A DNA stretch of 64,000 bases, taken from contig CP089274.1 of assembly GCA_023920165.1 (NCBI GenBank), positions 3,596,001-3,660,000 of the forward strand, in the 5' to 3' direction. The position numbers and the translations under genes are program-made. The notes beneath the pieces are model-generated. The model made no database searches. It was not told where the DNA came from and was given only the letters and a program-made list of their open reading frames with translations. Below, in pieces: positions 26,807 to 35,290 of this stretch (the first letter of the stretch is position 1; each line of letters starts with the position of its first letter). This DNA comes from Curvularia clavata. Taxonomy: Eukaryota.

Positions 26807-28218
26807 ATGAGTTCTGGACGTCCAGTCGTCCATCAGGACTACATTGCAAAAATCCGATATTCGAATGCGCTTCCTCCTCCACCATGCCCGCCCAAGCTGC
26901 TGGACATCCCCAATACCGGCCTTTCGAGCGGACAATACACCTCGGCGGGCTTTGCGTCAAGGCTGGCGCGAGAGCAGTCGCTGAATATTGAGGCGGATGC
27001 GGAGTTGGGTATGCCGATCGATCTGGTTGGTATTCCCAAAGTATTCGATGGAGACGAGTCTGGTAAGTGCAAGTCTGCAGCGCAAATGTCGCACAGCAAC
27101 TGACGCGTCATGTAGCTATTCAGGCCATGCCTCACCCACCGCCGCTCAGTGCGGTAGACAAGGCGCTCATGCGACCGCCCAATGCGCTTGGCAAATCAAC
27201 GACCAATGCGACGGGTGCTACCTTCTTGCGACGAACGGAATACGTTACTGCAAGCACCACTGGTGGTTCGAAATTCGAGTCTAGTAACTCGTCCAACACC
27301 ATGCGCTTGCGCAGGAAGCGGAAACAGGTGGAAACATCACTGGACGATCCTACAAACATCGCACGACACATATTGAAGGGCTTCAACATTGCTTATCCAG
27401 CAGATGCGTACAACGGACAGGACAACGCAGAGAACATTAGGGCAGCGGAATCGACACCTGAAGAGCGATTGGCATGGAACAAGCCCAAGCATCCCAGGAA
27501 CCCCAACCTCAAGCTGCTCGACTCTTACCCGTTGCTACCAGACTGGGACGCTACGCCCGACACTGGTGGGTACATGGTCTTCAAATTCACTGCACCGCCC
27601 ATCAATAATCCCCTCGATCCTTCATACGACCCACGACTCGATGTTGCTCTTCTCCGTCCTGCTGGCCAGACCATTCAAGACCAAGAAAAGTACATGGAAG
27701 ATCTTCAAGCGCACAAGCTCGACCCAACTGTCCCGCCGCCTATTGCACGTTATCAATTCGAGTTCTTCTTGCCTTCAGACAAGAGCAAAGTCCGTGGTAT
27801 TAAACGCAACTTCACAACCCACGACCCCACAAACGAGGACGACATCGATTTCGACATTGCCGAAGACGACGAGGGCCAACCGCGCAAGTGTTTCAAGTAC
27901 GACAACGTCCGTACCTACGAGACTTCGCAACAAGTCGGTGACCCCAGTGATACTTATGGCGATGTGGTCGCGCTTGCATTACACGATCCTGAGAAGCACG
28001 AAAATGAGTTGCTGAGAGACACAAAGCTGCAGAAGGCGGCATACTTCTACCCCATTACACAAAGGACTAGCTTAAGGCCCAGACGGCCAGGCCGTGTCGA
28101 TATGACAGAAGAGCAGCCAAAGGTCGACATCATCGAGGCAGCGGGCAAAGACCCAGACTCATCTGAAAGGCGGGAAATCTACAGGAAGAGGGCTGAAGGC
28201 ATTGACGTAACAGAGTAA
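26807..28218 (+). CDS. PAF1: RNA polymerase II-associated factor Paf1, 2 exons
   Basis: HQDYIAKIRYSNALPPPPCPPKLL, DAELGMPIDL, FLRRTEY, YPLLPD and AAYFYPI. Intron 27063-27115. Confidence 0.93.
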
Positions 28219-28860
28219 ATGTTTTTGACTCCTTTTTCGCCTCTCGAAAAAGGTCGCGTCTTTTTATTCAAGTATGCTACTCTCGAACTATCAAATGCTT
28301 AAGCTTATTGTAATGTGGGGACTTATCATCAGCGACGGCGTTAAAGCATGGGGATGGACATAGTACCAGATTATCTTTGCGATATGCAAAAAGTGGGACT
28401 TGGCTCATCAATTTCAAGGGTGACAGATTGGGGCAGAAGTATATGAGCAAGAAAATTATGCATTGGTTGGTTACTTTCTCCTATACTCAAGGCGGTATGG
28501 ATATGCAAGTGAGGAATGCTTCTCAAAACTGTGTCCTTTTTAAGTTTTTGAAATACTCCATCCAAGACTTAGTCTATCACAAGGAACGCTCAAAAAAGAT
28601 AAGCACAATGCCTGCAACGCAACGCTGTAAAAACCGAATATTGTCAACCCGTAAACAGCAAAGACCTAAACACTAACGCGATAACTCCCGACAATCCTGC
28701 CATAAAATCTCTGCACCCCGTTAAGTACCGGTAAATCCCTCGTTAATTATGCGTTATTCAAATTTCGGCTTGATACTGTAAGCAAGTTAGCGAAGTGTTT
28801 CTTTCCACAGAATAGCAAGATTGATAGGGACATACCCACATCGCGGTCTCCAATCTACTG

Positions 28861-29037
28861 TCATTGTATCCCTGGTTTTCCAACACTCTTCACATAGTAG
28901 ACGAGTGTGATGAATGCAATAACAAAGAGACCAAATTGGCTGGCTGCATTCAGGCCAGCCCAATCTTGGCCCCTGGCGCCCGAGCAGTGGTGAATGGGGA
29001 GGATTGGCTTTGGATTGTGTCCGAACCAAGAAGACAT
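28861..29037 (-). CDS. Small single-TM micro-protein, paralog A (58 aa; 66 aa if started at a spliced ATG at 29127)
   Basis: GCCACCATG context and an upstream intron 29125-29060 (GTATGT...GCTAAT...TACAG). The C-terminal helix is nearly identical to that of the ORF at 30490-30750. Confidence 0.7.
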   Translation of the reverse strand: MSSWFGHNPKPILPIHHCSGARGQDWAGLNAASQFGLFVIAFITLVYYVKSVGKPGIQ

Positions 29038-29489
29038 GGTGGCGACAACAAGACTCGACCTGTACGTATGTATTAGCACATGTCACTAAAACACTGAGTG
29101 GTATCAGGGCAGTAGAAATACATACATGAAGAAAATTTGACCTGCAAGAACGTTCAAGCGTATGCCAGTGAAGATGCAGTGAAGTTCAGTGAGATGTTTT
29201 GATGTAGAGTGCTGTGCCTGTCTTTGATCACAAGCATTACCCTTATGTAGTTCTCCCGTCCCGAATAGGGTGGGTGGGCGGAAGGGTCAAAGTTTGGGAC
29301 ACTAAAGTTACTGTTTCATGATACATCACCCGCTATAATTCGCTCAGCGTCCCTGGCGCTATGCCGATTATCGCTTTCGCCACCCGCGACTACTACTACC
29401 CAGACTAGTCTAGGCGACAGCAACTCTAAGAGCTACTTCCTACACCCATTTACATTTCGAAGGATTCTTATAAGTGGTATTTCTCAAAG

Positions 29490-29885
29490 TTATACAGTGA
29501 CTTTATCAACTTTCAGGTAGTAGTAGTAACACAAATCTGGTCCAGAAATTGACAAAAGCTGTCCAGTAGTGAAGCGACATGATGCCGCCGACTTCGCAAG
29601 GCAGAGAACGTAGCACTGCTTCCGCACGTGAAGTATCATGTGGCTATGCCAACCATCTTCAGTCCCTGAGCCACCGCGTCGTCGGTCCCTTCGCTTAACG
29701 GCGACGTGACTTGCTCTGATTGGGCGCGGAAGTACTATTCCAACGGAAACAACAATTCCATACTCCAAAACGCGTAACATTCTTGTTCTTGGCAGTCCTG
29801 TTCTTCGCTTAGAACTTGGAGTGAAGGGGTCCTCGGCTCTGGTTGCGGGTTTGACCATTTTGCCCCTGATCAAGCGTCCAATCAT
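29490..29885 (-). CDS. Hypothetical Arg-rich 131-aa ORF between the two micro-protein paralogs
   Basis: ACCAACATG context and a short hydrophobic stretch (YGIVVSVGIVL). No family recognised. Confidence 0.3.
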   Translation of the reverse strand: MIGRLIRGKMVKPATRAEDPFTPSSKRRTGLPRTRMLRVLEYGIVVSVGIVLPRPIRASHVAVKRRDRRRGGSGTEDGWHSHMILHVRKQCYVLCLAKSAASCRFTTGQLLSISGPDLCYYYYLKVDKVTV

Positions 29886-30489
29886 GTTGGTAACGATGAT
29901 GCACTGACATTTGTAGAGGTAGGCGGTGTAGTTACTTTTTTTAGATGGCTTACAATGGATGGACTTCAAAGTAGGTATTTGAGATATTGTTTCCGGCTAG
30001 ATAGCTTTTGCTCGACAGGACTCCGAATAGACTAAGTTGGCAGTATTTTAGCCTGAGGTCGTATTTTTATTGGTACTGAAGGTAGCTGATCTCGGTATGG
30101 AACCGCTGCTCTCTGGAAATTCAAGCTTGGGTTTGTTTGCCACAGCCTTTTTACATCAAGAACTCTCGTTTCAGACTGAACATGAGCAGGAAATTATGTA
30201 TTGGCTCATCACTCTCATACATGGGTAGTATAAATACAGTAATAAGCGATGCTCACTTGAAACCCTGCATTATTTTCCTGCTTGACCTCTTATCCCATGA
30301 AGACCAAAAACATATCCGAACACTTGGTATTTGTACGCCGGTTGGTGTCAGCAGCTGTTTTGAAAGCTGCCTTTTGTTCAAACTCTGACCTAGCGTTGTT
30401 GACTTAGCTAAGGTTTCTCCTTGTTGTAGTCAGGATCTTGATGTACCTCCATCGCAGTCTCTCATCTAAAGCGACTGTGGCCTACACGT

Positions 30490-30750
30490 CTAGATACTCT
30501 TCGCATAATAGACGAGGGTGATAAAAGCAAGAACAAAGAGGCCGAACTGACTTCCTGCGCTTAAGCAAAGTAACCAAAATGTTCTGATGCGGTTGTGCAT
30601 GATGGCGGTGGCCTTGCGATTAAGTCGCCATCCAGAATAACCCGGAAGCCGATGATGGTACTTGGCTGGTGGTGGTATTTGGTTGTGAGTGGGTAGGATA
30701 GTGGGTTTGGTGGCTTTTTGGTTGCGCTTACTTCTGCGTAGGGCGAGCAT
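30490..30750 (-). CDS. Small single-TM micro-protein, paralog B (86 aa)
   Basis: TATAAAAA at 30914-30907, 5'-UTR intron 30806-30758 (GTACGT...ACTAAT...CACAG), CTCACCATG start context and C-terminus AGSQFGLFVLAFITLVYYAKSI. Confidence 0.72.
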   Translation of the reverse strand: MLALRRSKRNQKATKPTILPTHNQIPPPAKYHHRLPGYSGWRLNRKATAIMHNRIRTFWLLCLSAGSQFGLFVLAFITLVYYAKSI

Positions 30751-32306
30751 GGTGAGGCTGTGAAACTGTATTAGTACACAGCGCCATGGGCAGTAGGAGT
30801 ACGTACGTGGGAACAATTGAGACGGAAGAACTTCAAGTATGTGCTAACGAAATATACGGAGATGTTCCCTTGCAAAGTGCTGCCAAGCGTTCCACGGAGC
30901 GAATACTTTTTATATTAACATGAACAAGACAGCGTATAGTGAAGACACAAGACCTGATGTCGTGGGAATCTTGTAGATTTGTTTGATCGATCTGGTTGGG
31001 ATTGGGGGTCTTTAAATATGGAGGGGCCAGCCCAGTACACTACCATTGAGCATCCCGCAAAGCAAGGATGGTGATTGTTGTGGAGCCCGAGTGGCCTAGG
31101 GACCGGGGCGGACATTCTTGCAGCAGGAGGGCCCAGGGACATGGCCCTCGCATGCAGCCAAGAAAATGTTTGGCGGTTGTTGGGTGGTGGTTTTAGTGCA
31201 GAGCTGACGGGCAGGGCACCGTAGTTCTAGCATTGAATGAGGTTAGCTCCCGAATGGCTAATGCGCCCTCCATGCTGGCTATTCTCGCTGTAGGGTTCTT
31301 ATTCGCTTCATCAACATGCATGTTCTTCTTTACTGTGCAGCATTTCACGTCAGCTTTTTGACGCGGTGTTGGCAGTAAGAGACTCTATACCATAGATATA
31401 CGAATCTCTCAGCCTGGTAGCGATGCGGAACGCCCACAGCAGTCCGGGGCACTCCAAACGCCAGGCGGCGATGCAGGACCGAGAGCAGTATTTCATTTTC
31501 AAGTTCATTTTGTGTCGAAGGCTTGCCTGTGGTGATTGACCAATCAAAAGTGTCTTAAAATAACGACAGGCCGCCCCTCAGCCCACCAGAACTGCGGGCA
31601 TGCGAGCTGCGTCAGAAGACCAGCTGGTTTCACTCCCAAGCCACCACGCTTTTAGTCTCTCTTGCCGAGGTGTACATATAAGTGACCACCATTCTTCTCT
31701 GCGTCACGTGCTATCTTATCTAAAGGCTTAGATCAACCCAACGATGTTATTGCCTTAGGCTAAACCAATGGTGCCTATCGCCACTTTAGAAACCAAGGGA
31801 CTCCTGGTCGACTGGTAAACCGAGAAATTCAAAACGGCGAAAGAAGAGCTATCCACAGAACGATTTAGTTACAATGATCCTTCAATACTTGTAGATACAT
31901 ACATATATAGTAATGGTTTTAAGTACTAGATTAGTTTAGATCTCCTGTTCATACGCAAAAGTAGTGGTTTTGTGATTTTGGATCGGTGTTAAGAGCCACC
32001 ATTTTCCGTTTTTACTGATCGATCCGAGAAGAGATAGGTATTTTTGTGCTTCATTGAGAAATAAAGTTACCCTCGCAGTCATTGTAGTGTTTGCAAGTGA
32101 TGTGTGCTTTTTTACGTCATGTATAACTAAAGACTGCTTACTAGTCTTCTGCTCTAACTGAAAGGCCAAGGGCCAGAGATGATAACTATGGAATGCGGTT
32201 TGATTTGCTAGTATTGTTCAACAATGCGCCGAGGAATAAATATGGGCAGTGAATAACCCCTCAATCTTTCTGATGGTTTATCTTAAACTATAGCCCCAGC
32301 GGTACA

Positions 32307-33604: not shown

Positions 33605-34639
33605 ATGACTTCCCACCAGAATACTCGCGCTGTATCCCAAAAGCATATCTTAGCACCATCTTTCCCCTTCACAGCACCGAAGCTCTATCAAAGTGATGAA
33701 GTACCATCCTGGTATGCCCACAACAACTACATCCAAACCGCCTACCGCCCCGTCACAAAATCCACTCGCCTCTGCATCCAAAGCCTCGCCTATCTCCATA
33801 ATGAAACTATCAACATCTACTCGCACCTCATTCCCGCACTACTCAGTCTCCTGGGCAGTCACTCTTTCAGCCTCAACTTCGCAGAGCGGTTTCCCCATGC
33901 GTCATGGAAGGATGAACTCATGTTCCGCATCTTCTTGACTACCTGTGTCATCTGCTTCGGCATGTCGGCTGCGTACCACACGCTGCTGTGCCATTCGCAG
34001 CTGTTTGCGAAGCTCTGGGTTCGCCTCGACTATGTGGGTATCGTGGTACAGATCGTGGGGTCCTTTGTGCCGGGCATCTACTTTGCGTTTTACTGTGAGC
34101 CAAATCTGCAGAAGCTTTATTGGACTATGGTACGTTTTGTAAATTTAAGGTGATGATATTGAATGCTAACTACTACTGTTTTCTGTTCAGATTGTCACTC
34201 TTGGGGCATTGGCGGCAACTATTGTCTTGAACCCAGGCCTTCAAGAACCAAAGTGGAAGACGTTACGGTTGTCAGTGTTTGTGGCCATGGGGCTTTCGGC
34301 CTTTGCGCCGATTGTTCATGCCAGCAGCATCTTTCCATACGGCCAGTTGGATCAGCAGTCGGGCTTACGTTATTATTTCTTGGAAGGAATCTTGATATTG
34401 ATTGGCGTCGGGTTCTATGCCGTAAGCTCTTACACTCCTACCACACATCTTCTGATTGCTCATGTTAACATGTATCGCAGGCACATTTTCCCGAATCCTG
34501 GAAACCCAAACGGTATGACATTTGCGGTGCATCACACCAGATCTTCCACGTTGCCGTTGTTCTAGGCGCGGTAGCTCATTATTATGGTATCATGAGCGCT
34601 TTTGAGTGGAACTATGAAAACCAGCGCTGCAAATGGTGA
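33605..34639 (+). CDS. PAQR / haemolysin-III family membrane protein (IZH-like), 3 exons
   Basis: [37 protein letters not shown] and [21 protein letters not shown]. Introns 34130-34190 and 34422-34480. Confidence 0.92.
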
Positions 34640-35191: not shown

Positions 35192-35290
35192 GGTGAGATG
35201 GCCGAGTTGGTTATGGCGCCAGGTTAAGGTTATCTTAACATCATATTCCTGGTCACGAAAGTGGCGTGGGTTCGAGTCCCACTCTCATCA
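35192..35290 (+). tRNA. tRNA-Leu(AAG) with a 17-nt intron (35230-35246)
   Basis: Acceptor stem GGTGAGA/TCTCATC, A box TGGCCGAGTTGG, anticodon stem CCAGG/CCTGG with AAG at 35226-35228, long variable arm and B box GGTTCGAGTCC. Confidence 0.95.

Follow-up and report, generated by a model that had tools for sequence, protein, structure and literature searches.

What do two very small genes do between PAF1 and an IZH gene of Curvularia clavata, and how is their resemblance to bacterial toxin peptides to be understood? The window (the whole stretch analysed, 64,000 nucleotides (nt) of contig CP089274.1, positions 3,596,001 to 3,660,000) is gene-dense, fungal and Pleosporales-like, and two minus-strand paralogues, here termed genes A and B, lie in it between PAF1 and an IZH/HlyIII gene. 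Both escape annotation and lead to a compact micro-protein array that exists as multiple haplotypes in common plant-associated fungi. Both genes are real, as splicing and selection show, and encode micro-proteins predicted to span the membrane once. What is new here is an undescribed hypervariable micro-protein array, of which A and B are probably the remnant in the lineage of the window; the array may in turn encode the determinants of a self/non-self or poison-antidote system. The open-licence PMC and bioRxiv literature gave no description of this family or locus and no match to six locus tags and accessions of array members, subscription papers and supplements (expression tables) being outside that scope.

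Structure and selection of genes A and B

The features of the interval are the following (aa, amino acids; ORF, open reading frame; UTR, untranslated region; X1, X2 and X9 are runs described below).

27127..28218, plus strand: PAF1, left synteny anchor (Pfam Paf1, E=1.4e-29)
28200..28775, minus strand: probable 3' exon of gene A (X1 and X2 contigs of 2.3 kb)
28776..28835, minus strand: gene A intron 2, in the 3'UTR, 60 nt, GT..AG (60-nt skip in X1)
28861..29037, minus strand: gene A coding sequence, 58 aa, one exon (ORF list; comparison with X1)
28885..28947, minus strand: gene A conserved helix block (15 apolar residues at 28891-28935)
28990..29001, minus strand: gene A LPIH motif, of the LP[TVM][HY] type of the syntenic family
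29060..29125, minus strand: gene A intron 1, 66 nt, GT..AG (66-nt CT..AC joint in X2; retained in X1)
29126..29199, minus strand: gene A exon 1, 5' leader (in X2 joined to exon 2, as contig piece 29124-29199)
30390..30446, minus strand: gene B intron 2, in the 3'UTR, 57 nt, GT..AG (57-nt CT..AC joint in X1 and X9)
30490..30750, minus strand: gene B coding sequence, 86 aa, one exon (ORF list)
30496..30558, minus strand: gene B conserved helix block (15 apolar residues at 30502-30546)
30685..30696, minus strand: gene B LPTH motif (retained in the allele P0058; commonest form in the syntenic family)
30758..30806, minus strand: gene B intron 1, 49 nt, GT..AG (joint in X1, X2 and X9)
30807..31120, minus strand: gene B exon 1, 5' leader (X2 contig piece 30807-31120)
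33605..34639, plus strand: IZH/PAQR (HlyIII) gene, right synteny anchor (Pfam HlyIII, E=8e-28)

A sequence-only reading of the window had described a minus-strand ORF pair with a common helix, ILP[IT]H motifs and similar leaders, introns and 3' flanks, and all of these are found where it placed them. Both ORFs are present, but neither ends at the shared KS as that reading had it, A continuing for seven residues and B for one. An in-frame TAG occurs ten codons past the common KS in both genes, beyond their own stops (28855-28857 and 30466-30468); the stretch from helix to donor holds no indel between A and B, the 3'UTR donor being equally distant, and this TAG is perhaps the ancestral stop. Two alternative structures were rejected: a frame open across exon 2 of A, where B has a stop and the substitutions are not synonymous, and an internal intron in B starting from GTAAGC at 30731, which is unspliced in three runs spanning the site.

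Four of the 14 listed runs (X1, X2, X9 and X13) were aligned to the locus. The RNA nature of X1, X2 and X9 is a guess, and they represent other strains or sister species, for the most part 90-99% alike; their contigs show neither strand nor expression level, and strand was read from the CT..AC joints. The predicted 5'UTR junctions, 29125-29060 and 30806-30758, are spliced in contigs of these probable RNA runs, the first in X2 (the X1 contig retains the intron) and the second in X1, X2 and X9, while X13 covers the intron sites of both genes unspliced. A second shared pair of introns, missed by the sequence-only reading, lies in the 3'UTR at 28776-28835 (X1) and 30446-30390 (X1, X9), directly behind the conserved 3' flank which that reading had named, and its donor is placed alike in A and B, 55 nt past the helix-closing Lys codon. 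The aligner put the skip in A at 28780-28839; because of strain differences at 28838-28839, we shifted it to the GT..AG register. Splicing of intron 1 of A builds an in-frame ATG across the junction (29127), which adds eight N-terminal residues and gives a 66-aa form, and since one run's contig retains this intron and another splices it, two N-termini of A are possible. We infer that both genes are translated. The transcript of A starts at 29199 or upstream, and the X1 and X2 contigs extend from its 3' region as far as the 3' end of PAF1, which is convergent with it; A and PAF1 likely form convergent overlapping transcripts (28200-28775), a contig over two genes being no proof of a single transcript.

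The 63-nt helix blocks (28885-28947 and 30496-30558, spacing 1611) are 81% identical, and third codon positions account for nine of their 12 base differences (binomial P=0.004). About nine synonymous changes in 14.5 sites stand against three non-synonymous changes in 48.5, a ratio of non-synonymous to synonymous rates (omega) of about 0.05 (Fisher P=3e-5), in agreement with the purifying selection on the helix peptide that had been proposed; the other two frames, with 0/11 and 2/10 synonymous/non-synonymous codons, lack the pattern. Outside the block, the alignments of leader plus donor and of the 3' flank are each better than all of 500 shuffles. The coding sequence of A differs from that in X1 at one of 177 nt, synonymously, compared with 22 of 580 nt in the flank (P=0.024). 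B has one unnamed allele in the protein collections, P0058, whose changes, nine substitutions and the loss of one residue, all fall in residues 18-55 and leave residues 1-17 and 56-86 intact. On these comparisons the helix is constrained and the spacer loose but in frame: in either protein the N-terminal part, which carries an LP[TVIM][HY] motif, is under loose constraint and the C-terminal helix under strong constraint. The N-terminus of B is basic (14 K/R, no D/E) and modelled at low confidence by AlphaFold2, which predicts a helix over residues 51-86 (pLDDT 85-95).

Splicing, selection and haplotype variation thus bear out the earlier view of real small-protein genes in a variable interval, and none of the findings which it held to speak against genes (no splicing, a dN/dS near 1, a transposon match) was obtained. 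As to a transposon origin, searches of the own genome give only the window copies, as lower bounds, and no transposon Pfam domain is present; no repeat library was searched. In this genome (32.4 Mb, 8 contigs) no other copy was found with A, B, their DNA, an array member of locus L009 or P0053, and one candidate (L032) was rejected as an unrelated long ORF. A has no relative in the protein collections: a word-based search gave none, and an alignment of A, B and P0058 recovered only P0058. A HMMER search of 1.84 billion representatives gave four matches, among which P0058 is the sole true relative and none is a bacterial protein; two others are repeat proteins on reading and another is a protein of 2512 aa with eight stretches, not counted as real. 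A metagenome scan with A/B patterns confirmed none of 60 candidates, the PDB sequence search gave only sensory rhodopsin II (E 6.7-8), and an Atlas search with an array family member nothing above 0.78.

The PAF1-IZH array of related fungi

A metagenome scan with PAF1 gave 26 loci, 17 of them at 85-90% identity and most with the same PAF1-interval-IZH order. Fifteen close loci were screened for the array, L016 being too short, L017 having another gene order and the nine distant loci L022-L030 being left out. In 14 of the 15 the interval holds two to seven small minus-strand genes, the remaining locus being a partial copy of L018. Among 46 aligned members LP[TVMSI][HY] occurs in 45, RxxTxP in 31 and a true [LP]PxY in 13; 43 end in K/R directly past the hydrophobic helix, and 20 show the intron pattern just before the ATG, compared with 1.4% of controls. 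As their closest named proteins, all hypothetical, come from Alternaria rosae, A. alternata, A. tenuissima and A. burnsii, the metagenome loci are taken to be Alternaria, from which the fungus of the window is more distant (synonymous divergence, dS, of PAF1 about 2-3).

The array loci represent 11 distinct haplotypes with different sets of subfamilies, four of which recur at 99.8-100% in independent assemblies; seven share one assembly. Within subfamilies omega is 0.14 in the helix and 0.30-0.45 elsewhere. The nearest array homologues mostly differ by a dS of 0.3-1.5 compared with 0.07-0.39 for PAF1, except for subfamily g3 (0.07-0.21), which shows no excess. Median dS climbs toward the array, from 0.16-0.17 in ERG25 to 0.18, 0.22, 0.29 and 0.34 in successive quarters of PAF1, and the closest pair switches by segment: L009 and L010 are near 0 in ERG25, and L008 and L009, at dS 0 in the 5' half of PAF1, carry different arrays. 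This divergence pattern agrees with long-maintained haplotypes in a population that recombines, as in the balanced polymorphism described for fungal het loci (PMC11138114). The haplotype structure thereby lends indirect support, from a side other than the toxin likeness, to the still conjectural cell-death or incompatibility role which the sequence-only reading had thought conceivable.

The array would resemble the fungal het/vic loci (Aspergillus fumigatus hetA-E), in which divergent co-existing haplotypes and raised divergence of flanking genes are likewise found, here in relatives of the window's fungus. The products described for those loci are large domain proteins (PNP_UDP, NB-ARC, CHAT, patatin, NACHT; PMC11138114), whereas the array consists of tandem single-helix micro-proteins known here from sequence. 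A further analogy is offered by the wtf drivers of Schizosaccharomyces, a family of fast-turnover membrane proteins in which an (L/P)PxY-like motif is N-terminal; isoforms that differ at the N-terminus, possible for gene A, would be another common trait. The membrane poison of wtf drivers is removed in a PY-motif-dependent way (PMC10721834). They differ in being multi-pass products that need true PY motifs, where A and B have His for Tyr, and no sequence similarity was found.

The array is read, with a probability of about 0.35, as a polymorphic self/non-self or poison-antidote system with helix-specific determinants. The helix would carry the specificity; a strain would tolerate its own set, perhaps through helix-to-helix pairing and removal by way of the LPx[HY] motif; and a member without its match, encountered when hyphae fuse or strains cross, would disturb a membrane. 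LPx[HY] would then serve as a trafficking handle, in analogy with wtf antidotes (PMC10721834). We infer a cytosolic N-terminus, although the case for A is less clear than that for B and the array. Rather unlikely is a reading of the array as a new class of killer or self/non-self loci in fungi, with single-helix micro-proteins as executioners, each helix type a separate specificity, and with the helix of the present lineage converged on the sequence of a bacterial type I toxin. If the array controls compatibility, regulated cell death in fungi would gain a minimal membrane-peptide executioner, and Pleosporales a candidate incompatibility locus that can be mapped directly; the terms 'holin', 'small protein' and 'Alternaria' do not occur in a review of regulated cell death in fungi (PMC12881547). 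Otherwise the array is still a new selected micro-protein family.

Several observations weigh against a compatibility function. The dS of IZH stays high (0.46-0.69 in L006-L014 and L020), above that of PAF1 and ERG25. As dS does not fall again downstream, a peak is visible from one flank alone, and the diverged block may be centred nearer IZH or past it. The dS values are compared within the locus and not with a genome-wide baseline. The contigs may stem from separate species, and hidden paralogy inflates the dS of the array. Selection on the array is purifying, not positive; no alternative A/B haplotype was seen in the window's lineage (four runs); and no HET, NLR, PNP_UDP, patatin or CHAT domain was found at the locus.

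The purifying selection throughout would agree as well with ordinary membrane adaptors or regulatory subunits, in which the helix binds a transporter or enzyme, LPx[HY] recruits Rsp5 or another cytosolic partner, and genes turn over by birth and death free of conflict. Short single-pass proteins with PPxY/LPxY motifs are known to set the surface levels of membrane proteins (PMC5578492). Rcr1/Rcr2, Commissureless and PRRG4, the single-pass PY-motif adaptors, share with the array a short single-pass protein and a Pro-centred linear motif, and the frequency of the three motifs among the 46 members points the same way. In the array, however, the motif precedes a C-terminal helix, is mostly LPxH and belongs to a hypervariable tandem set; A and B carry neither PxY nor RxxTxP; and 11 co-existing, deeply diverged gene sets are not what a plain adaptor predicts. 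An adaptor role, the main rival of the self/non-self reading, appears somewhat unlikely.

Other observations concern the array itself. Members P0049-P0057, of section-Alternaria type, look mosaic by eye, similar N-terminal halves being joined to different helix types, which suggests shuffling by unequal crossing-over or conversion. One subfamily carries NPFDD (L010:9700-9981, L014:8037-8318 and L020:6108-6389) where others have DPNPY or DPDPY at a similar place; it matches the fungal NPFxD endocytosis signal. Within the array of L020 a 121-aa minus-strand ORF (L020:2070-2432) has a C-terminal helix, no LPx[HY] and no Pfam match, and a similar stretch occurs at L018:3926-4285. The more distant haplotype L018 has two array genes together with two further ORFs in the interval:

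L018:1596-2477: 294-aa ORF with no confident domain
L018:7254-8288: ORF like NAD-dependent epimerases (E=2e-8)

Probable membership of A and B in the array

A and B are probably diverged members of the PAF1-IZH array, a view for which the evidence of position is strong and that of sequence weak. They share with the metagenome members the interval, the minus strand, the motif, the 5'UTR intron just before the ATG and the terminal helix closed by Lys. Motif and terminal helix together occur only in A and B among 311 window ORFs of 40-170 aa, where 0.19 are expected, the motif having been widened to admit A. A DNA profile of the A/B helix and 3' region, run with nhmmer against the 26 loci, gave ten matches, all on C-termini of members (seven independent, at weak E of 0.036-5.5). 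Comparison of A/B with the family by hhalign gives P=0.003 at a probability of 10%, and in the top 23 other matches the family, 94 of 1428 targets, accounts for 16 with B and 6 with A.

Other results tell against membership. The hidden Markov model (HMM) of the family gives B 7.8 bits, a score reached by 1 of 1000 shuffles, and A 1.9 bits (7 of 1000); B ranks fifth of 1334 window segments by this model, below four unrelated ones. A tblastn search gave nothing significant, and the family DNA profile misses A and B in the window just as their leader profile misses the family. The helices of A and B are shorter (15 apolar residues, compared with a median uncharged run of 23) and less hydrophobic (1.84-1.89 compared with 2.33-3.27), and they lack the stripe of small residues (Gly/Ala) of 36 of the 46 members. 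Both proteins are devoid of RxxTxP and [LP]PxY, and where a PY motif has Tyr they have His. The closest named proteins of Alternaria (OAG16262.1, KAF7681150.1; A. rosae BKA58DRAFT_405864) resemble A and B in LP[TVM][HY], in a Lys-closed C-terminal helix and in belonging to no curated Pfam family; they differ in longer Val/Ile/Gly-rich helices ending at the stop, RxxTxP and two to seven copies.

The weak protein scores, the different helix character, the mutual failure of the DNA profiles and the long branch of A and B in the tree could also mean that A and B are a pair of their own lineage without relation to the Alternaria array, the array merely sharing the same unstable interval, and that the role of the pair is minor or of another kind. 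This is unlikely, since locus, strand, motif, intron position and terminal helix all coincide and the nhmmer matches are confined to the C-termini of members.

Likeness to SprG1 and other toxin peptides

The sequence-only reading had also pointed to the holin-like toxin family Hol_Tox (PF16935), with the caveat of hydrophobic convergence. Hol_Tox is indeed the sole Pfam match, for A at 18.8 bits (E=0.0015) and for B at 15.4 bits (E=0.018), below the cut-off of 23.3 and over model positions 12-26 of 34 only. NCBIfam PepG1 (NF041589) gives 14.8 bits (E=0.016, cut-off 70; positions 25-37 of 47 only) and PHROGs a 44-position holin family, phrog_3488 (E=0.007); in the Atlas the top match is a Hol_Tox cluster (0.87, a lead only). 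These matches amount to one observation, since all rest on the same 13-15 residues, in A a 13-mer at residues 34-46. The peptide encoded by phage loci found with a motif on this stretch has 44 residues and agrees with SprG1-44 as PMC8309996 describes it. With the helix of SprG1 A shares 10/13 residues and B 9/13, compared with seven for the best of the other 5,993 hydrophobic fungal 13-mers, 10/13 being a best-of-many figure because the toxin was picked for matching; A shows no identity to SprG1 outside the 13-mer.

The local likeness is real, while family membership and shared origin do not follow from a sub-threshold, partial match with no bacterial protein in the HMMER search: A and B are not Hol_Tox members, and the SprG1-like 13-mer probably represents convergence, not descent. 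A is the top Hol_Tox match in its own genome at 18.6 bits, next to 17.9 for an unrelated sugar-transporter-like helix (identity judged by eye). Comparable fungal helices match unrelated families at E=1.7e-5, 0.0013 and 0.0022; among the 46 syntenic relatives none matches Hol_Tox at E<=0.1 and seven match MotA_ExbB (best 1.7e-5). Unrelated helices thus yield chance matches just as good, and the caveat of convergence holds as the probable explanation.

Convergence could still extend to activity, A and B being stand-alone depolarising peptides that act like SprG1/PepG1, type I toxins of Staphylococcus aureus prophages, and are curbed by low expression, intron retention or antisense RNA. The single helix, its identity to SprG1, the rank of A among Hol_Tox matches, the Atlas lead and the two Lys past the helix of A would agree with such an activity. 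The mutational data on SprG1-31 (PMC10579593) point the other way: both Phe shared with A and B can be changed to Ala without loss of toxicity, the last nine, charged residues are essential, and charge added at the N-terminus abolishes toxicity. A and B do not have such a charged C-terminal segment with charge confined to it: the tail after the helix has nine residues and net +2 in A and three residues and net +1 in B, and the N-terminus of B is strongly basic. A and B further differ in having 33-67 residues ahead of the helix, in being spliced fungal genes and, by inspection, in having no signal peptide. No antisense RNA overlapping the A or B mRNA, as a cis antitoxin would, was seen in the contigs, which cannot exclude one. 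A toxin of this kind is distinctly unlikely, and should the array have no role in compatibility, A and B remain a clear example of how a toxin match below threshold can break down at the very residues known to matter. True Hol_Tox/PepG1 homologues acquired from a Gram-positive bacterium or phage, to which three profile libraries and 27 of 39 matching bases over the 13 codons might point, are hardly credible in view of scores all under cut-off, the near-equal sugar-transporter-like helix, two introns, fungal synteny, the 0 of 46 relatives matching Hol_Tox and the lack of a bacterial or phage homologue among the 1.84 billion representatives and 50,697 phage records.

One spliced RNA lies between the two genes:

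29467..29996, plus strand: spliced RNA with intron 29517-29566 (one X2 contig joint, depth 3.9)

It is of low depth, holds no ORF over 43 aa and overlaps neither the A nor the B mRNA as seen, in contigs that carry no strand. It is antisense to a 168-aa minus-strand ORF (29490-29996) with a hydrophobic stretch and no Pfam match. A weak match of the leader profile at 29861-29918 (E=0.14) might be the relic of a third copy. Beside the IZH gene the only Rfam match of the window, a tRNA at 35192-35290 (48.7 bits), was not called by ARAGORN; its length of 99 nt makes it probably intron-containing.

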